Below, one piece after another: positions 27,249-62,202 of a DNA stretch of 64,000 bases (the stretch's first letter is position 1; the number at the start of each line of letters is the position of its first letter). Source of the stretch: an uncultured Nitrospirales bacterium (GTDB lineage: Bacteria; Hydrogenedentota; Hydrogenedentia; Hydrogenedentales; GCA-2746185); NCBI GenBank assembly GCA_964620045.1, contig CAZUJL010000011.1, positions 31,477 through 95,476 on the forward strand. The letters are read 5' to 3'. The notes below the pieces were generated by a model that saw only the letters and a list, made by a program, of their open reading frames with translations, did not search any database and was not told the origin of the DNA. Both the position numbers and the translations under genes were made by a program.

Positions 27249-27420
27249 TTACGCCGCGACCGTGCTACCGCCGCGCACTTCGTCGCCGAAGCGCACCGAT
27301 ACGATTTGCGATACGCCGCGTTCCTGCTGGGTCACGCCGTACATGCCGGCAGCCTGCGCCATCGTCTGTTTGTTGTGCGTAATCACGACGAACTGGGTGT
27401 CGACCGTGAACTCTTCGACC
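27249..27420. repeat. Direct repeat copy A (~170 bp); partner at 28287..28458
   Basis: Aligned by eye: a core of about 150 bp differs at one position, with flanks becoming degenerate. Confidence 0.85.
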
Positions 27421-27452
27421 ACACTATGCAAATGCCGATGTTTACGATTCAT
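27249..27452 (-). pseudogene. Detached duplicate of the last ~57 codons of smc
   Basis: 27268-27417 is identical to 28306-28455 apart from one mismatch. It encodes the same C-terminal peptide as SMC (VEEFTVDTQFVVITHNKQTMAQAAGMYGVTQQERGVSQIVSVRFGDEVRGG). Confidence 0.7.
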
Positions 27453-28286: not shown

Positions 28287-28458
28287 TTACGCCGCCGCGT
28301 GGCTCCCGCCGCGGACTTCGTCGCCGAAGCGCACCGATACGATTTGCGATACGCCGCGTTCCTGCTGGGTCACGCCGTACATGCCGGCAGCCTGCGCCAT
28401 CGTCTGTTTGTTGTGCGTAATCACGACGAACTGGGTGTCGACCGTGAACTCTTCAACC
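28287..28458. repeat. Direct repeat copy B (the 3' end of intact smc)
   Basis: See copy A. Confidence 0.85.
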
Positions 28459-31400
28459 ATCGACACAAAGCGGCCGATGTTCGCGTCGTCCAGCGGGGCG
28501 TCCACTTCGTCGAGCACGCAGAACGGGCTCGGCTTGGCCTTGAAGATGCCGAACAGCAGCGCGATCGCCGTCATGGCCTGCTCGCCGCCGGACAGCAGCA
28601 TGATGCTCTGCGGCTTCTTGCCGGGTGGACGCGCTTCGATCTCGATGCCGCACTCCAGCGGGTCGTTTTCGTCGGTCAGGAACAGGCGCGCCTGGCCGCC
28701 GTTGAACAACCGTCGGAAGTAGTTCTTGAAGTTTTCCGCGACCGCGTTGAAGGTCTCCACGAACATCGCGGTGATGGTCTTGTCGATGCGCTGGATCACG
28801 CCGAGCAGCGCTTCGCGCGCCTTGCGCAGGTCCTGATCCTGCGCCACCAGGAACGCGTGCCGCTCGACGAGCGCCTCGTGTTCCTCGATCGCCATCAGGT
28901 TCACCGGGCCGAGCCGTTCCAGACGCTCGCGGATATCGGCGACCATCTTTTCGCGCGTCTCCGCGTCGTGCTCGTCCGCGCCGACTTCTTCTTCGGTCAG
29001 CGACGCCAATGCCACGTGGTACTCGTTCAAAATCCGCTCGCGGAAGAATTCCAACTGGCTCTCGTCGTGCCGCAGTTCCATCTCGGTCTTGTGCACGAGC
29101 GTCTGCGCCTCGCGCACTTCCTCGCGCAGCACCTTGAGCGCCTTTTCGATCGTGTCGGATTCATCGAGCACTTCCTGGCGCCGGTTCTCGGCTTCGACCA
29201 CGCGCGTCCGCGCTTCCTCGCGCGCTTCGGACAAGGCCTTCGAGCGTTCGAGGTGTTCGGTAATGTCGGTTTCGAGCAGGCCCACCTGCGTGCGGAAGTC
29301 TTCGATCGCCTGTGCGCGACGGCCGGCTTCGCTGCGCGCATGCGCACACTCGCGCTGCACGCGCTGGTGCTCGCGCGCGGTCTCTTCGACCGACTTCGCC
29401 AGTTCAGCGATGTGCACGCGCAGGTCCGCCAGCGCCGCCGCCATCGTGGCGTGCGCCGTGCGCGCTTCGGCCGAGGCCTCCTGCGCCATGGTCAGCGCGC
29501 GCTCTAGCGACATTGCTTCCAGTTCCAGCGCCGCCGCCGCGTCCTGCTGCTGCGTGCGCTGGGTCGTGAAATCGTCGCGGCGCGAGACGAGCACATTGCG
29601 CTCGGCCTCGTTGTGTTCGGCGGATTTCTCCAACCGGGCGATTTCGCGCGACAGGCGGTCGCGTTCCGCAGCCACTTTGGCCCGGCCCGTGCGCACCGCG
29701 TCCATGCGCTGAGTCAGCGCCTCGCGCAGCTCGGTCTGCGCCGCCAAATGCAACGCCACGTCTTCGTTTTTCCACGCTGCGTGCGCCAGGCGGAATTCCA
29801 CGTCCGCCAGCGCCGCGTCGAGCCGCTCGATCTCCGCGCTGCGGCCGAGCAACCCGCGGCTTTCGTTTGCCGCGCGGCCGCCGGTCACCGCGCCCGAGGG
29901 CACGATCACCGAACCGTCCGCCGTCACGAAGGATCGGCGCGGCCGAACTTCGCGCGACAGGCGCAGGGCCTCGTCGAGCGAATCTGTAAGGTACGTGTCG
30001 CCCATCAAATAACGCACGATCGCGCTGTAGCGTTCATCGAAATTGACAAGGCTCAGCAGCGAACGCGCGGGGATGCTCTCGGCGTTTTCCGTCACGGCCG
30101 CTTCAATCGCATCGAGCGGCAAGAACGTCACGCGGCCGGCTTGTTGTTCCGACAAATAGGCAATCGCGGCCGCGGCATCTTCGCTGCGCTCGACCACGAC
30201 ACAATTCACATACGCGCCCAGCGCCGCTTCGACCGCGCGCTCGAATTCCGGGGCCGTGCGCACGAGATCGCCGACCGGCCCGATCACGCCGGACGCCGCC
30301 GGATGCGCCGTCTGCTTTGCGTGCATGATCGCTTTCACGCCCGCCGCGAAACCTTCGTACGAGTCGCGCAGTTCGCGGAAACTCGTCAGACGCGCTTCGA
30401 CACGGCCGCGCTCTTCGCGCAACCCTTGCCAAATCGCGCGCGCGGTTTCGCGTTCTTCGCGCAGGCGTTTCTCCGCGATGTTCGCTTCGCTGAGTTCGCT
30501 CTCGACACCCGCCAGCGCGGCGGCTTCCGCCTGCTCGCGCTGCTCGGCATCGGCCAGCGCAGCATTCAACGATTCGCGCTGCCGTGCTTCCTCGGCGAGA
30601 CGCGTATCGAGCGCCGCGAGCTGTTCTTCCATGTGCGCGATGTTGACGGTGAGCTTCTCAATCGCCGTCTCGGCGCGCGAGCGCTGGTTCATCGCATCTA
30701 CTGTCTTACGCCGCGATTCTTCAAGTCGCGCGTCCGCTTCCTTCACGCGCTCCGACGCCTGCTGCAGCTCGGCCTGGCGCGCGGCGAGCACGGCGTCGAT
30801 TTCGGCCTGCTCCGCACGCAACGCCTCGAGCCGCGCGGCCACTTCAGTGCCCTGCGTTTCGAGCGAATTCCCTTGTATTTCCAGAGATTCCCGCTCCGCC
30901 GCGGCCTTCTGCTCCTGGTCGCGCGAGAACGTGATCTGCTGCCGCACGAGCGCCACGTGCCGCTCGATTTTTTCCATCTCCACGTCGATCTCGTGCACCG
31001 CTTCGCGCCGCGCGTGGAGGTTGCGATCCGCTTCGAGTTTCGCGAGGCTGAGTTCTTCGTGCCGCGCCTCGAGCTCGCTCATCTCGGCGTTTTTCTTTTC
31101 GTACGTGTCCTGCGCCTGCGCGAAGCGTTCGTTCAACTCGGCCAATTTCGCGGTGAGGTCGCGCTGCTTGAGCCACGACGCGCGGATTTCCAGCTCGCGC
31201 AGTTGCGTGGTGAGTTCGCGGTGCCGCAGCGCCGCGTTTACCTGGCGCTTCAGCGATCGCATCTGCCGCTCGACTTCGTGAACGATGTCGCCGAGGCGCA
31301 ACAGATTTTGATCCGCGCCTTCGAGTTTGCGCATCGCGATCTTCTTGCGCGTTTTGTATTTGATGATCCCGGCGGCTTCTTCGAACAGGAAGCGGCGGTC

Positions 31401-31865
31401 TTCCGGCTTCGAGCTGAGCACCATGCCGATCTTGCCCTGCCCGATCATCGAGTACGCGTTCGTCCCGATGCCGGTGTCCATGAACAGTTCCTGCACATCG
31501 CGCAGGCGGCATGGCGCCTTGTTGATCAGGTACTCGCTCTCGCCCGAGCGGTACACGCGGCGGGTGACCTGCACCTCGGCAAATTCGATCGGCAGCGCGC
31601 CGTCGGCGTTGTCGAAAGTCAGCGTCACTTCGGCCATGCCCATGGCCGCGCGCTCTTCGCTGCCGTTAAAAATCACGTCCTGCATATGCGCGCCGCGCAG
31701 GCTCTTGGGCTTCTGCTCGCCCAGCGCCCAGCGCATCGCGTCGAGAATATTGCTCTTCCCGCAGCCGTTCGGCCCCACCACCGCGGTCATGCCCGCGTCG
31801 AGGTCCACAATGGTTCGGTCCGCGAAGGACTTAAAGCCGATCATTTCGATTCGTTTGAAATGCAT
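28287..31865 (-). CDS. smc: Chromosome partition protein SMC
   Basis: MHFKRIEMIGFKSFADRT...VVGPNGCGKSNILDAMRWALGEQ, a long coiled coil, the LSGGEQAMTAIALLF signature, and a C-terminal Walker B segment. Confidence 0.9.
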   Translation of the reverse strand: MHFKRIEMIGFKSFADRTIVDLDAGMTAVVGPNGCGKSNILDAMRWALGEQKPKSLRGAHMQDVIFNGSEERAAMGMAEVTLTFDNADGALPIEFAEVQVTRRVYRSGESEYLINKAPCRLRDVQELFMDTGIGTNAYSMIGQGKIGMVLSSKPEDRRFLFEEAAGIIKYKTRKKIAMRKLEGADQNLLRLGDIVHEVERQMRSLKRQVNAALRHRELTTQLRELEIRASWLKQRDLTAKLAELNERFAQAQDTYEKKNAEMSELEARHEELSLAKLEADRNLHARREAVHEIDVEMEKIERHVALVRQQITFSRDQEQKAAAERESLEIQGNSLETQGTEVAARLEALRAEQAEIDAVLAARQAELQQASERVKEADARLEESRRKTVDAMNQRSRAETAIEKLTVNIAHMEEQLAALDTRLAEEARQRESLNAALADAEQREQAEAAALAGVESELSEANIAEKRLREERETARAIWQGLREERGRVEARLTSFRELRDSYEGFAAGVKAIMHAKQTAHPAASGVIGPVGDLVRTAPEFERAVEAALGAYVNCVVVERSEDAAAAIAYLSEQQAGRVTFLPLDAIEAAVTENAESIPARSLLSLVNFDERYSAIVRYLMGDTYLTDSLDEALRLSREVRPRRSFVTADGSVIVPSGAVTGGRAANESRGLLGRSAEIERLDAALADVEFRLAHAAWKNEDVALHLAAQTELREALTQRMDAVRTGRAKVAAERDRLSREIARLEKSAEHNEAERNVLVSRRDDFTTQRTQQQDAAAALELEAMSLERALTMAQEASAEARTAHATMAAALADLRVHIAELAKSVEETAREHQRVQRECAHARSEAGRRAQAIEDFRTQVGLLETDITEHLERSKALSEAREEARTRVVEAENRRQEVLDESDTIEKALKVLREEVREAQTLVHKTEMELRHDESQLEFFRERILNEYHVALASLTEEEVGADEHDAETREKMVADIRERLERLGPVNLMAIEEHEALVERHAFLVAQDQDLRKAREALLGVIQRIDKTITAMFVETFNAVAENFKNYFRRLFNGGQARLFLTDENDPLECGIEIEARPPGKKPQSIMLLSGGEQAMTAIALLFGIFKAKPSPFCVLDEVDAPLDDANIGRFVSMVEEFTVDTQFVVITHNKQTMAQAAGMYGVTQQERGVSQIVSVRFGDEVRGGSHAAA

Positions 31866-32041
31866 GGTTTCCCGCCTGAGTTGATGCGCCCGAGATCCCC
31901 CAGCACGCGATCGCGCAGCTTCGAAAAAGCACGGCACAGCCGCCGCGCCAATCGAGGGGTGGGCTTCCGCCCAAAGATACCGCCCCACCGCCCAGCCCAT
32001 TGTCGGCGCTGGGGTTAGGGAATGTCAATCGCGAAATAACC

Positions 32042-36134: not shown

Positions 36135-36522
36135 TCGGCCAGAAAACCGCGTATTATTGGGCTTTGCGCCTTGTAAAGCCCCTGAGCCTTTGTTAGCATG
36201 AAGTCGCTGCACGGGGTTCTGCGGGCAGCGCTTCCCGGGGTTGAGATCTCCACAGGTTTGTTGGATATGTGGAGAATTGTTTGTGAATCGCACTCCAAAA
36301 ACGCGCGGTTCATCAACACGAATTCAGACCCCATGAAGCGGCGGGATGGTGGTATGGGGAGTGCGGGGAATGATCGTGCATTTTTTCCGCAAGTCATCCA
36401 CCGGCCAACCAGTGTCGCGCCATGGGGTTGGAAGGTTTTCACAATAACTCACACGACCACTACTACGATTACTTAATTTATAAATTAAGAAAAGAACCAT
36501 TACTACACGAGGATATTGTGAA

Positions 36523-37632
36523 ATGAAGATCATCATCCCGAAGCAGGATTTACTGGACGCGGTCAATAAAGTGAAGACGGTAGTGTCCGCGAAATCCGCG
36601 TTGCCGATCCTCTCTCACATCCTCATCGAAGCGGAAAAGGGAAAGATTCATCTTTCCGCGACGGATTTGAAAGTCAGTCTGGAATGCACAGTTGATTGTG
36701 AAGTGAAGAAAGCCGGTTCATTGACGGTGTCTTCACAGCGTCTTGCATCCATCCTGGCTGAGCTTCCGGATTCGGATATCACGATTGAACTGGGTGAAAG
36801 CAATGTGATTCGCATTGAATGCGGGAAAATCCACACCCGCTTGTTCAGTATGTCACCCGAAGAGTTCCCGCCCGCGCGGCAGTTGGAAGATGTGGAGCCG
36901 CTGGTTCTGCCACAGAAGTTACTCCGGGATATTTTTGAGAAGACCTCTTTCGCGATTTGCACCGACCAGGCCCGCTACAACCTTACAGGACTTTTGATGG
37001 AGCTCAAGAACGGCGTGCTTACCGCCGTGGCCACGGATGGTCGCCGCATGAGCCTTTACAAGGAAGATGAAGGCATCATCGATGGTGTCAACGTAAAGGT
37101 GATTGTTCCGGGAAAATTGATCCAGGAATTGATGCGTTTGCTGGGTGATGAAGGTGATGTGCAGGTGTATTTCGGCGAGAATCAGGCCGCCTTCGAGTTT
37201 GATTCACTCCGCTTGACGACGGCCCTTATCGAAGGTTCGTTCCCGAATTACGAGATGGTCGTGCCGCAGAAGCACGACAAACAGGCCAAGGTCGATACCG
37301 CTGCCTTTATCGAAGCGGTACGCCGTACGCGCACAATGACCAACGAAAAATTTAACTCCGTTCGCTTTAAGCTCGACAACGGACTAGTCCGCCTGAGCGT
37401 AGTAACCCCTGAAGTTGGTGAATACGAAGAAGAGCTGCAACTCGAGTACAAGGGCGACACAATCGAGATCGCGTTCAATCCTGATTTCCTGCTTGATATT
37501 CTCAAACACATCAACTCTGATTCATCCATCTTGGTGCTGAAGGACGCGATGAGCCCGGGCATCGTAAAGCCGGTGGCCGAGAACGGCACCGACAAGTACA
37601 TCAACGTCGTGATGCCAATCCGCATATCCTGA
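36523..37632 (+). CDS. dnaN: DNA polymerase III beta sliding clamp
   Basis: MKIIIPKQDLLDAVNKV...ILSHILIEA..., about 369 aa, typical DnaN. Confidence 0.9.
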   Translation: MKIIIPKQDLLDAVNKVKTVVSAKSALPILSHILIEAEKGKIHLSATDLKVSLECTVDCEVKKAGSLTVSSQRLASILAELPDSDITIELGESNVIRIECGKIHTRLFSMSPEEFPPARQLEDVEPLVLPQKLLRDIFEKTSFAICTDQARYNLTGLLMELKNGVLTAVATDGRRMSLYKEDEGIIDGVNVKVIVPGKLIQELMRLLGDEGDVQVYFGENQAAFEFDSLRLTTALIEGSFPNYEMVVPQKHDKQAKVDTAAFIEAVRRTRTMTNEKFNSVRFKLDNGLVRLSVVTPEVGEYEEELQLEYKGDTIEIAFNPDFLLDILKHINSDSSILVLKDAMSPGIVKPVAENGTDKYINVVMPIRIS

Positions 37633-37648
37633 GGGCATGTGGGAAAGT

Positions 37649-37657
37649 TGTGGATAA
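37649..37657. promoter_or_regulatory. Perfect DnaA box TGTGGATAA in the AT-rich region 3' of dnaN
   Basis: Exact 9-mer consensus, inside a 234-bp AT-rich intergenic region that also contains a nearby AAACCATT...AATGGTTT inverted repeat and a TATATATATAAATT tract. Confidence 0.4.
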
Positions 37658-37866
37658 CCCAGGTTTCATTCGGGAATATCTTGACCGTACTGCTACTCAC
37701 ACCCATCAAAATTGAAAACTACTCTGCAACACGATCACTATAAACCATTTATCATCAATGGTTTATATATATAAATTGACGCTTGGTTTTTAGACCCTTG
37801 GGATTTCCCAGCTAGCGAAGTTTTGCGTCAACTGATCATACGCGCGGTGCATAACTCCTTTAATTC

Positions 37867-40462: not shown

Positions 40463-40552
40463 GGAGAGATGGCCGAGTGGCTGAAGGCGCTCGCTTGGAA
40501 AGCGTGTGTACGTGAAAACGTACCGAGGGTTCGAATCCCTCTCTCTCCGCCA
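40463..40552 (+). tRNA. tRNA-Ser (anticodon GGA) with a long variable arm
   Basis: Manual fold: GGAGAGA acceptor, D-arm GCCGAGTGGCTGAAGGC, anticodon loop TTGGAAA, long variable arm, T-arm GGTTCGAATCC, CCA encoded. Confidence 0.8.
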
Positions 40553-59938: not shown

Positions 59939-61084
59939 TCAGGTTGCCATCACTTCTAGAAAGACTTTCTTAAAGGTCTCCATCTCGTCCGGCGTGCCGA
60001 TCGAGATGCGCGCGTGCGTCGGCCACGAAGACCACGGCCGGCCGATGTATACGTCGCGTGCGGCCATGCGCGCGATGACGTCCTGCGCCGGCCGGTGGGT
60101 GTCGACCATCATTTTATTGCTCTGATTCAGCGCAAACGTGTAGCCGTTTTTCGTGAAAAAGTCCTGCAAATCCTTACGCCGCTCGTCGTATAGCGCTTTG
60201 CGCTCCGGCACCACCGTCGAGTCGGCCAGCATCGTGCGCGCCGCTGCCATGGCCGGCGCCGGCATCGCGCCCGCCTGCATGCCGCGCATGGGCGTCACCT
60301 TGTCCGGCGACCCGATTGCAAAACCCGCGCGCAGCCCCGCCATGCCGTAAATCTTGGAGAAGGTCCGCAGCACGACCACGTTGCGCCCGTCACGCACATA
60401 CGCTGTGCCGCGGGGCTCATCGGTAAAGTGGATATACGCCTCGTCCAAAATCACAGTTACATCGCTTGGACAGTTTTCTATTATATATTTCACGTCGGCA
60501 TCCGGCACCACGGTCCCGGTCGGATTGTTCGGATTGCAGAGATAAATCGCGCCCGCGCCTGTAGCTGCTTTCACCATGCTCTGCACGTCCTGCCGGCCGT
60601 CTTTGGCGAGCGGTACGCGCGTGACCGGCGCGCCCATCCACCGTGCAGCACCCGCAGCCGACTCATATCCTGGGTCGGACGTAACGAGCCCGCGCGACGG
60701 AGACGTGTATGCGATGACCGCCTGGTGCAACGCGAGACTCGATCCCGGATAGACCAATATGCCGCGCGGATCCACGCCTTCCTGCTCGGCAAACAGGCCG
60801 ACGAGGTCGGAGGCTTCTTCGTAGTTGTAGCGTCCGCCATCACGCGCCACGGCCGTATATGCGTCCAGCGCCGCGGGCGTGATCCCCATCGGGTTTTCGT
60901 TCGCGTTGATCTTCACCGCGCCCGCCCCGAGCCGCCTTCCCAAGGCCGACGCCTGCGCCATCGCGGCTTCGTTGTAGAAGGAGAGCGTCGCCGCGCCCGC
61001 GCCGAGCAGGGTCGCGATCTTGAAGAAGTCCCGGCGCGAGTGGCCGAGTTTGATCAGGGTCTCCGCCGTCTGTTCGGTCAGCAT
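59939..61084 (-). CDS. Class I/II PLP-dependent aminotransferase (HisC-like) with an N-terminal Tat signal peptide
   Basis: SRRDFFKIATLLGAGAATL...AMA Tat signal, INANENPMG (HisC-type), and the PLP-binding Lys region TFSKIYGMAGLRAG. Confidence 0.7.
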   Translation of the reverse strand: MLTEQTAETLIKLGHSRRDFFKIATLLGAGAATLSFYNEAAMAQASALGRRLGAGAVKINANENPMGITPAALDAYTAVARDGGRYNYEEASDLVGLFAEQEGVDPRGILVYPGSSLALHQAVIAYTSPSRGLVTSDPGYESAAGAARWMGAPVTRVPLAKDGRQDVQSMVKAATGAGAIYLCNPNNPTGTVVPDADVKYIIENCPSDVTVILDEAYIHFTDEPRGTAYVRDGRNVVVLRTFSKIYGMAGLRAGFAIGSPDKVTPMRGMQAGAMPAPAMAAARTMLADSTVVPERKALYDERRKDLQDFFTKNGYTFALNQSNKMMVDTHRPAQDVIARMAARDVYIGRPWSSWPTHARISIGTPDEMETFKKVFLEVMAT

Positions 61085-61523
61085 CGCGAATCCTCCGAGG
61101 AAAAAGTATATCCCTATTTAGCAACGACGATGCCACGAAATTTTCACACGATCTACGCTAAAACGGGCTGTTTTTAAAATCCCCGCGTGCCTTGGTGCCA
61201 CGGAAGACACCCTCCCGTAAGTTTCGCACAGCGAGCTACCGCCGGGTAGAAAAAGCGCACGCGGCCGATCTGGAGTTTGTTGAAATTAGAGCTATATAAG
61301 CATAATAGTATTTATGTATAGCTCGAAAATCGGCGATTTTTGGCGGTCTGTCGCAAACGGGGGCAATATTTTGAGGAGTATCCTGCGTGGAAGTGGCGCC
61401 TTACGTGAATAACTTGGGGATAACCGCACTTTTTGGTCGACGAATGGTGCTTGGGGCGCCAGGTAGGGCTAGTTATAGGGGCGATTCTCCCTATTTTGGC
61501 TGATTTGGGTCTGTGGTGCCATT

Positions 61524-61532
61524 TGTGGATAA
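61524..61532. promoter_or_regulatory. Perfect DnaA box TGTGGATAA in the 480-bp AT-rich non-coding region beside rsmG (a second box-like TGGGGATAA at 61415..61423)
   Basis: Exact consensus 9-mer read from the sequence; the region 61085..61563 has no convincing ORF and is AT-rich. Confidence 0.4.
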
Positions 61533-61563
61533 GTTGGGTGCTTCGATGGGTTCCACGTGGAAC

Positions 61564-62202
61564 CTAGCGGGTTAGTCTATAGAGCTTGCCACGGCGCAGC
61601 CCGCTGCCTTCGAAGGCATCATGCACCGGCACGCACTCCGTTACCCCATGCACGCCGGCTGTCGCAGCCTCTCGTTGCATCAAGTACACGTCTCCGGGCC
61701 GCAATTGCTTTATTAGTTCAGAGTCGAAGGCTTCAGGGCGTTCCACGGCTCGCGCGGTATAGATGCGGCCCTTCGGGGCGTCGAGTTGTAGGGGATATTG
61801 GCCTGCCACCACATGGCCCGAGGGCAGGTCGAGCGCCCTCAGCGCCTGGCGTAGATAGTCGGACTTCCGTTCGGAGCGTTCGACCAACCATACCGCCCGG
61901 TCCCCCAGCGCGACAGCGATTGGTAGGGCGGGGAATCCTCCTCCCGATCCGATATCGACATAGGCCAGATCTGGTCGGCCCTGGATCTCTGGACAGAGGG
62001 TCAGCGAATCGGCGATATGCTCGTCGAAGCGTTCACCGAGGTCGCCTTTGGACATCAACTTCGCGGCAAGGTTCCACGTGGAACATAGCCGATGGAAGAC
62101 CTCAATCCGCGCCAGGAAGGTATCGTGATCAATATCAATCCCGAGCGACAGGAGGACATTAAGGGCCTTGGTGGTTTGAGGAAAGCCATAGGAAGAAATC
62201 AT
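61564..62202 (-). CDS. rsmG: 16S rRNA (guanine527-N7)-methyltransferase RsmG (GidB)
   Basis: STWNLAAKLMS...DIGSGGGFPALPIAVAL SAM-binding motif; the start (ATG 62202 or TTG 62262) is uncertain. Confidence 0.75.
   Translation of the reverse strand: MISSYGFPQTTKALNVLLSLGIDIDHDTFLARIEVFHRLCSTWNLAAKLMSKGDLGERFDEHIADSLTLCPEIQGRPDLAYVDIGSGGGFPALPIAVALGDRAVWLVERSERKSDYLRQALRALDLPSGHVVAGQYPLQLDAPKGRIYTARAVERPEAFDSELIKQLRPGDVYLMQREAATAGVHGVTECVPVHDAFEGSGLRRGKLYRLTR

Follow-up and report, generated by a model that had tools for sequence, protein, structure and literature searches.

The spacer that flanks rsmG, a gap of 479 bp at positions 61085-61563 of the window (the whole stretch of 64,000 nucleotides analysed here), raises the question of whether chromosome replication starts at this locus. 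In uncultured phyla an origin is usually predicted from the combination of an AT-rich gap, DnaA boxes and a marker gene, and the first-pass annotation had proposed that the gap could be oriC or a regulatory hub. Its description of the locus was largely accurate. The gap, given there as about 480 bp, AT-rich and gene-free, lies between two minus-strand genes, has a GC content of 0.497 against 0.616 for the whole window and contains zero internal ORFs, since the listed ORFs that touch it read the flanking genes antisense or in an alternative frame; the 65% GC quoted for the genome was slightly high with respect to the 0.616 of the window. The gap indeed abuts rsmG/gidB, and dnaA, reported as missing from the window, was also missing over window coordinates 1-81,590, a span in which the window is lengthened by 17.6 kb taken from the same genome on independent public contigs (L001/L004/L091). 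No motif of either parA or parB was found within the same coordinates. Both DnaA-box matches that had been claimed, TGTGGATAA at 61524 and the variant TGGGGATAA at 61415, are present, and a third box at 61404-61412 completes the cluster of three or more boxes that had been proposed as a check.

An Rfam search of the spacer at E ≤ 1 returned zero matches, and at gathering thresholds the whole window gave three tRNAs and nothing else. Promoter and terminator scans of the spacer were at chance level (1 promoter found against 1.0 expected), the promoter scan returning a weak sigma-70-like match at 61280-61309 on the plus strand. The locus was then compared with its relatives (L006-L008, L009/L010, L003, L093, L094, L098 and L099) and with a further set of 80 more distant rsmG loci; a scan of genome contigs for relatives returned one distant relative. 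The RsmG homologues with a named source come from Candidatus Hydrogenedentes/Hydrogenedentota MAGs. Identity of cimA to the window genome is 94% in L006, 82% in L009, 81% in L003 and 71% in L015, and rsmG evolves fast, with an identity of 42-58% where that of cimA is 81-94%. The features discussed below are collected in Table 1.

Table 1. Coordinates of the features of the rsmG spacer, its flanks and the dnaN region (positions of the window).
Feature	Position	Strand	Remarks
dnaN-upstream spacer, oriC-like candidate	36135-36522	+	388 bp, GC 0.49
dnaN, DNA polymerase III beta clamp	36523-37632	+	all three Pfam beta-clamp domains
dnaN-downstream spacer	37633-37866	-	GC 0.41; tandem TTATCCACA-AC-TTTCCCACA (37638-37657), then AT-rich
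tRNA-Ser(GGA), ancestral neighbour of the rsmG module	40463-40552	+	same tRNA in L003, L015, L019
PLP-dependent aminotransferase	59939-61084	-	downstream neighbour, lineage-variable
Sigma-54-type -24/-12 element, TGGCAT-N5-TTGC	61121-61135	-	37 nt before the aminotransferase ATG
Palindrome CTACC-N4-GGTAG, candidate upstream activator site	61236-61249	.	about 115 bp upstream of the -24/-12 element
AT-rich stretch, inverted repeat GAGCTATA-N20-TATAGCTC, short ATA-CTA-TTA run	61279-61330	-	middle of the spacer; partly conserved
DnaA box 3, TTATTCACG, 2 mismatches	61404-61412	-	2 bp from box 2, 11-bp register
DnaA box 2, TTATCCCCA, 1 mismatch	61415-61423	-	first of the tandem pair, 109 bp from box 1
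DnaA box 1, perfect TTATCCACA	61524-61532	-	18 bp from the parS core; all 9 positions invariant (alignment A2)
parS-type palindrome GGTTCCACGTGGAACC	61549-61564	.	abuts the rsmG stop codon; invariant in six aligned relatives
rsmG, 16S rRNA m7G527 methyltransferase, 212 aa	61564-62202	-	Pfam GidB 76.5 bits; also 212 aa on public contigs
parS-type palindrome GGTTCCACGTGGAACA	62070-62085	.	inside rsmG; perfect 14-bp core

Two perfect parS-type palindromes, absent from the first-pass annotation, were found at 61549-61564 and 62070-62085. Both copies conform without mismatch to the sequence GGTTCCACGTGGAAC(C/A) and fall within 521 bp, and every other match in the 64 kb has 3 mismatches. The inner site overlaps the codons of the conserved RsmG S-T-W-N motif, whose residues W43 and N44 do not vary in the RsmG alignment, and occupies an identical position in L003, L004, L006 and L009. 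The 14-bp core, GTTCCACGTGGAAC, is identical to that of the Pseudomonas aeruginosa sites parS1-parS4 (TGTTCCACGTGGAACA/C), which were shown experimentally to be bound by ParB (PMC4368675) and are likewise clustered in the origin domain; the outer base is G here instead of T, and P. aeruginosa has four sites against two in this locus, one of which is embedded in conserved rsmG codons. Sites at or in the rsmG 3' end recur in about 30 loci, among which RsmG identity falls as low as 31%; besides the six aligned relatives, more than 20 loci at greater distance have a parS at this end or just past it. Wherever the flanking sequence reaches dnaN, the parS at the end of rsmG lies near it, and in the distant relative L076 the gene order is rsmG-parS-parA. 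The palindromes thus share with chromosomal parS sites both a 16-bp inverted repeat equivalent to a bound parS and a conserved, origin-proximal placement among relatives.

The three DnaA boxes, with 0, 1 and 2 mismatches, lie within 129 bp and are all on the minus strand. The significance of this cluster derives from its conservation across genomes, because box counts alone are not beyond chance: boxes with at most one mismatch number 10 in the window against 5.0 +/- 2.4 expected, and the densest box-like region of the window is at 36-38 kb and not in the rsmG spacer. The layout is shared by nine divergent, Hydrogenedentota-like lineages. Box 1 lies 14-31 bp from parS in eight of them and 63 bp from it in L011. 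The tandem pair comes 105-113 bp (about 108) after box 1 in all nine, with an intervening sequence that is not conserved, and the pair with its 2-bp gap was detected in eight of the nine, the second box of L003 being too degenerate to score. Every box faces the same way across the nine lineages, and no reverse-orientation box was found among them. When six spacers were aligned (alignment A2), the invariant columns fell mostly on parS, box 1 and the tandem pair, and the rest was poorly conserved.

The gene that follows the spacer is variable, being an aminotransferase, an E1-E2 ATPase, a converging tRNA-Ser or another converging gene; the position of the aminotransferase is taken by the ATPase in L009 and by tRNA-Ser in L003. 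Since the downstream gene changes and the module stays, the module belongs with the rsmG 3' end, and its recurrence in nine divergent lineages, whatever gene follows, indicates a real protein-binding module. The conservation pattern is, as far as the alignments can tell, the footprint of predicted protein-binding sites, unlike that of an RNA or of a gene-specific operator. The parS at rsmG is far more widespread than the boxes and occurs in the absence of any DnaA box in L012, L014, L019, L027, L098 and L099; with so many box-free lineages, the boxes are not needed for centromere function as such.

Beyond the tandem pair the spacer contains an AT-rich stretch, whose 40-mer at 61276-61315 (32/40 A+T) ranks as the fourth most AT-rich of the window. 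The stretch is partly conserved in L093, L006, L094 and L009, and L003 and L011 are likewise AT-rich in this region. In L015 and L016 the boxes are not followed by any AT-rich block; directly after the boxes of L015 come another parS and a converging gene. The nearest good box is about 60-70 bp away in this genome and 35-100 bp away across the relatives. This stretch, with its ATA-CTA-TTA run, is left unexplained by a model of pure binding sites.

The basal unwinding system of bacterial origins consists of tandem DnaA boxes, a GC spacer, DnaA-trios and an AT-rich DUE (PMC8287927). We scanned for such a module by requiring a box with at most 2 mismatches, a spacer of at most 16 bp and at least 3 trios, and found nothing in the window element and nothing conserved among the relatives. 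The spacer resembles a canonical oriC (PMC8287927) in its tandem same-orientation boxes 2 bp apart and in the AT-rich stretch lying downstream on the same side; it differs in having no trios within 16 bp of a good box and no skew switch, and the region upstream of dnaN in the window fits that description far better.

Strand asymmetry was evaluated from the per-gene GC3 skew projected on one strand, using a fit with a coding-strand term and separate terms for the left and the right of the element. The left and right values were -0.097 +/- 0.020 and -0.169 +/- 0.021 in this genome, +0.27 and +0.23 in L006, +0.15 and +0.06 in L009, -0.14 and -0.15 in L003, and -0.41 and -0.28 in L015. A sign change at the element, which an origin would require, was thus seen in none of the five genomes, nor anywhere over -61/+20 kb in the window genome, and the skew of L098 and L099 behaves likewise. 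The asymmetry is shared by genes of either orientation and is therefore a property of the strand and not of transcription. AT3 skew was uninformative at this GC content, and L061, in which dnaA adjoins rsmG and which served as a positive control for skew flips, had too weak a skew. The first-pass annotation had suggested the cumulative GC skew as a check, with the minimum expected at the spacer if this were the origin; over the 81.6 kb covered, which is a part of the replicon, the minimum is not there, and the purified cumulative curve declines without reversal between about 49 and 81.6 kb, crossing the element on the way.

Relative to the element, the skew of L003 and L015 runs in the direction opposite to that of this genome, L006 and L009. 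A unidirectional origin would explain a skew of the same sign on both sides and was rejected because of this opposite direction in L003 and L015. A recent inversion hiding the skew switch was also rejected: three lineages share the pattern although their cimA has diverged to 82-94% identity, and third positions should by then have re-equilibrated. Replication forks appear to run straight through the spacer, which makes an origin-proximal centromere and DnaA-binding module more likely than oriC. With its invariant boxes, and with neither a skew switch nor an unwinding module, the spacer resembles non-origin DnaA-binding loci, in which high-affinity boxes are conserved away from the start site. 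Of the two functions named in the first-pass annotation, the regulatory hub is therefore the one retained, given the conserved, origin-proximal three-box cluster, and oriC is disfavoured by the GC3 skew of equal sign on both sides.

The window also contains dnaN, at 36523-37632, which had gone unmentioned in the first-pass annotation. As regards origin indicator genes, rsmG adjoins the element, and the distance to dnaN is 24 kb in this genome and 3-5.5 kb in L003, L015 and L019. Pfam matches identify a T2SS-type ATPase, RNase Y and SMC upstream of dnaN. The dnaN-upstream spacer contains boxes at 36246, 36268 (minus strand) and 36310 and a tandem TTTTCCGCA-AG-TCATCCACC at 36383; at 36435-36453 it reads GTTTTCACA-A-TAACTCACA, followed by the spacer CGACCA, and at 36460-36474 CTA CTA CGA TTA CTT, followed by the most AT-rich 40-mer of the window, which ends at the dnaN ribosome-binding site. 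The homologous gaps carry CTACTACTACTACTT in L003 and CTATTACTATTACTC in L015. In the box-plus-trio scan the dnaN gaps of L015 and L019 pass at no more than 2 box mismatches, that of L003 passes only with a 3-mismatch box, and that of the window narrowly fails the strict scan, its boxes having 3 mismatches and one trio being interrupted. Just past the dnaN stop codon, L003 and L019 also have a perfect or near-perfect box, as does the dnaN-downstream spacer of the window.

In L003, L015 and L019 the gene order is rsmG, module, tRNA-Ser, trx, asd, epimerase and dnaN, the module of L019 being a parS without boxes, and the dnaN orthologues lie 3-5.5 kb from it. In the window genome 20.5 kb separates tRNA-Ser from the module, and no att-like repeats were found flanking this insertion. 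Public Logan contigs break at about 39.5 kb and about 44.6 kb, so that the long-range skew inference across 36-50 kb rests on one assembly. Because of these breaks a chimeric contig was considered; it is disfavoured, the order tRNA-Ser, element, rsmG matching that of L003, L015 and L019. At the dnaN-upstream gap the skew passes from -0.080 +/- 0.025 to +0.010 +/- 0.029, remains on a plateau to about 49 kb and then becomes strongly negative; the sign does not switch cleanly at the gap, and the strongly negative values between 50 and 81.6 kb are of the wrong sign for an origin at 36 kb. The skew on the rsmG side of dnaN has the expected sign in L003 and L015 and the opposite one in this genome, L006, L009 and L098; in L019 it is weak, the values being close to zero and the sign changing at just one partial gene. 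Most likely, replication starts outside the rsmG spacer, and the dnaN-upstream module (36135-36522) is the best origin candidate in the window, a concrete candidate for oriC that we flag as being in conflict with the strand skew. Two accounts would fit: an origin located beyond the entire block, with the block itself inverted between clades, or an origin usage that is clade-specific.

On balance, we read the spacer as an origin-proximal centromere with an accessory DnaA-box array, an interpretation of the conserved sequence pattern that we consider somewhat probable. According to this model, the rsmG-proximal third (about 61400-61564) and the site inside rsmG would constitute the chromosome centromere, where ParB would load at the two perfect parS sites. 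DnaA would occupy the three same-orientation boxes beside the ParB complex and would not open the DNA there, the array being an origin-proximal accessory DnaA-binding site. Such an array could couple the level of the initiator to segregation, as at the Caulobacter parS region, or alternatively could titrate or modulate DnaA, as do datA or the Bacillus DnaA-box clusters. The sequence elements, with their conservation and geometry, and the missing skew switch are observed; the binding of ParB and DnaA, like the function of the module, is predicted from the sequence.

A more far-reaching proposal, which we advance tentatively and as a rather doubtful one, is that the composite of parS, box, about 108 bp and tandem pair, locked in its geometry, is a new centromere-coupled initiator-binding module of the Hydrogenedentota and that the block from dnaN to rsmG is replicated in opposite directions between clades. 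Through the composite, occupancy by DnaA would be tied physically to the ParB partition complex, and a block apparently replicated oppositely between clades would mean that in this phylum the origin has moved or that more than one origin can be used.

The centromere reading has to be weighed against three other explanations. A role of the spacer as oriC itself, with DnaA binding the three boxes, opening 61279-61330 and starting bidirectional forks, is very improbable. The GC3 skew has no sign change in the five genomes or over -61/+20 kb here, and its direction relative to the element is not conserved; the trio runs have no box with at most 2 mismatches within 16 bp, the AT-rich stretch being about 60-70 bp off, and L015 and L016 lack an AT-rich block after the boxes. 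These results outweigh, in our judgement, the conservation of three boxes in one orientation, among them a consensus box and a tandem pair, the fourth-ranked AT-rich 40-mer with its short ATA-CTA-TTA run, the adjacency to rsmG and parS and the persistence of a long spacer in L009 and L003 despite different downstream genes, the more so as there are only three boxes and a better-furnished candidate exists at dnaN. Bipartite origins flank dnaA in Bacillus or Helicobacter, and the spacer might similarly be the accessory half of a split origin, in which DnaA at this site would act together, through looping or recruitment, with the boxes flanking dnaN as the site of unwinding. In its favour, only 3-5.5 kb separates the module from the flanks of dnaN in L003, L015 and L019, where the two are oriented to each other as they are in the window, tandem boxes with a 2-bp gap occur at both sites (the gap being AG at both in this genome), and in both layouts the boxes point from rsmG to dnaN. 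Nevertheless, the module is still intact with 20.5 kb inserted here and with more than 10 kb between the two sites in L006 and L009, which argues for a distance-independent function, the same-synteny lineages L019 and L098 have no boxes at rsmG, and the skew does not confirm the dnaN-upstream gap as the origin in this clade. We regard a split origin as unlikely.

The boxes might instead exert transcriptional control, acting as a repressor, activator or roadblock site for read-through from rsmG or for a promoter in the AT-rich stretch, with an incidental adjacency to parS. A fixed spacing to parS would be unexpected for a gene-specific operator, the downstream gene and its orientation vary between lineages, the promoter scan was at chance (1 against 1.0 expected), and the aminotransferase has its own conserved promoter 290 bp from the boxes. 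For these reasons transcriptional control seems improbable to us, even considering that DnaA is a known transcription factor, that the AT-rich stretch could hold a promoter, as the weak sigma-70-like match at 61280-61309 on the plus strand would allow, and that the spacer also carries the sigma-54-type promoter of the aminotransferase.

Returning to the origin-proximal centromere with accessory boxes, its closest precedent is the parS region of Caulobacter crescentus, where DnaA binds DnaA boxes at the parS centromere (Mera et al. 2014, reviewed in PMC6399470). On this reading, DnaA boxes are in both cases located at a ParB-binding centromere near, but distinct from, the origin, and DnaA would use the same box recognition at the two sites. 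The composite described here differs in having a fixed, phylum-wide geometry anchored at the rsmG stop codon; moreover, parAB are not nearby, and binding and a role in segregation are at present predictions.

Clusters of DnaA boxes outside the origin include datA and DARS in E. coli and the DnaA-box clusters of Bacillus subtilis. The likeness with these is looser and consists in a small, high-affinity box cluster that is origin-proximal and lies outside the unwinding site; by analogy, the module could plausibly buffer or modulate DnaA. The DARS core, however, has opposed boxes, whereas all boxes here have one orientation, datA needs an IHF site and none was identified in this locus, and none of these clusters is known to have a direct physical coupling to parS. 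A literature search combining Hydrogenedentes with oriC returned nothing relevant, and a constant geometry coupled to parS throughout a candidate phylum is apparently undescribed.

The signature on which origins are commonly predicted can, to judge from this case, mark a centromere-linked DnaA-binding site instead of a start site. If DnaA binds beside ParB, the locus would offer a phylum-wide, sequence-defined natural system for the crosstalk between initiation and segregation, which to our knowledge has so far been documented mainly in Caulobacter, Bacillus and Vibrio.

Finally, the aminotransferase-proximal third of the spacer (61085-61250) is, judging from its conserved motifs, a putative sigma-54-type promoter with an upstream palindrome. 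The consensus of RpoN is TGGCAC-N5-TTGC, with GG at -24 and GC at -12, and on this basis we take the element at 61121-61135 to be a sigma-54 (RpoN) promoter. An RNA leader in this part of the spacer was considered and discarded, as no covariation was detected and the conserved blocks fit a sigma-54 promoter with a palindromic operator. The palindrome is conserved only in the four genomes in which the aminotransferase follows (the window genome via L004, L093, L006 and L094), and the motif TGGCAY-N5-TTGC is present in 4/4 genomes at alignment columns 147-165.

The intergenic gap immediately 5' of dnaN displayed an oriC-like architecture of the canonical type, built from DnaA boxes and tandem pairs, together with a GC spacer, trio-like triplets in the form of CTA repeats and those 40-mers that are richest in A+T across the window. 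Another DnaA box cluster was detected 3' of the gene, and both flanking arrangements were kept in the relatives L003, L015 and L019. As a candidate for oriC, the dnaN flank is probably superior to the spacer beside rsmG, which the first-pass annotation had put forward as a possible origin.

Features of the window discussed in the text
Feature	Position	Strand	Remarks
smc	28287-32000	minus	
dnaN	36523-37632		flanked by gaps 36135-36522 (upstream) and 37633-37866 (downstream)
Sigma-54-type -24/-12 element TGGCAT-N5-TTGC	61121-61135		upstream of the aminotransferase gene
Palindrome CTACC-N4-GGTAG	61236-61249		upstream of the sigma-54-type element

The replication direction of the block running from dnaN through tRNA-Ser to rsmG-apgM-cimA was evaluated from the GC skew at third codon positions (GC3). 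When 49-81.6 kb of the extended window was compared with L003, L015 and L098, the internal orientation of the block was unchanged, whereas its GC3 strand skew in the window genome, L006, L009 and L098 was opposite in sign to that in L003 and L015. The block appears to be replicated in opposite directions in different clades, which points to a relocation of the origin, an inversion of the entire block or the presence of more than one origin.

tRNA-Ser(GGA) and the rsmG module adjoin in L003; in the window they lie 20.5 kb apart, and the intervening stretch (40553-61084) looks like an island. Its 40.8-48 kb portion has a low GC content (0.54-0.58) and carries genes of the GDSL lipase, MBOAT and spermine-synthase-like types; a search for an att-like repeat for the stretch found none. 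Logan contigs assembled independently from the same samples end within asd (about 39.47 kb) and show a second break at about 44.56 kb, with the stretch from 40.5 to 44.6 kb present as its own 4-kb contig. These breaks indicate variation between strains, or an assembly graph that branches, at the island.

Within rsmG, the internal parS centromere palindrome (62070-62085) corresponds to the codons TCC ACG TGG AAC (S-T-W-N) of a conserved RsmG motif, so that the same bases code for protein and would also act as centromere. Relatives that are more distant have an internal parS encoding F-H-V-E instead, about 75 bp ahead of the stop codon. RsmG identity between the window genome and L003, L006 and L009 is just 42-58%, where CimA, ApgM and DnaN reach 80-94%; its evolution is unusually fast for a housekeeping methyltransferase whose gene hosts two parS sites. 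The distant relative L076 carries, at about 798-1300, rsmG and parS followed directly by a parA-like gene with a KGGVGKTT motif, the classical gid-par arrangement, which the window genome lacks.

At the aminotransferase end of the spacer beside rsmG, the sigma-54-type element and the palindrome are both kept in L093, L006 and L094, and the downstream aminotransferase has a TAT signal. Finally, a partial smc copy of 174 bp (27252-27425), corresponding to the last 58 codons with 55/58 identical amino acids, was located about 860 bp 3' of smc within a 388-bp spacer.
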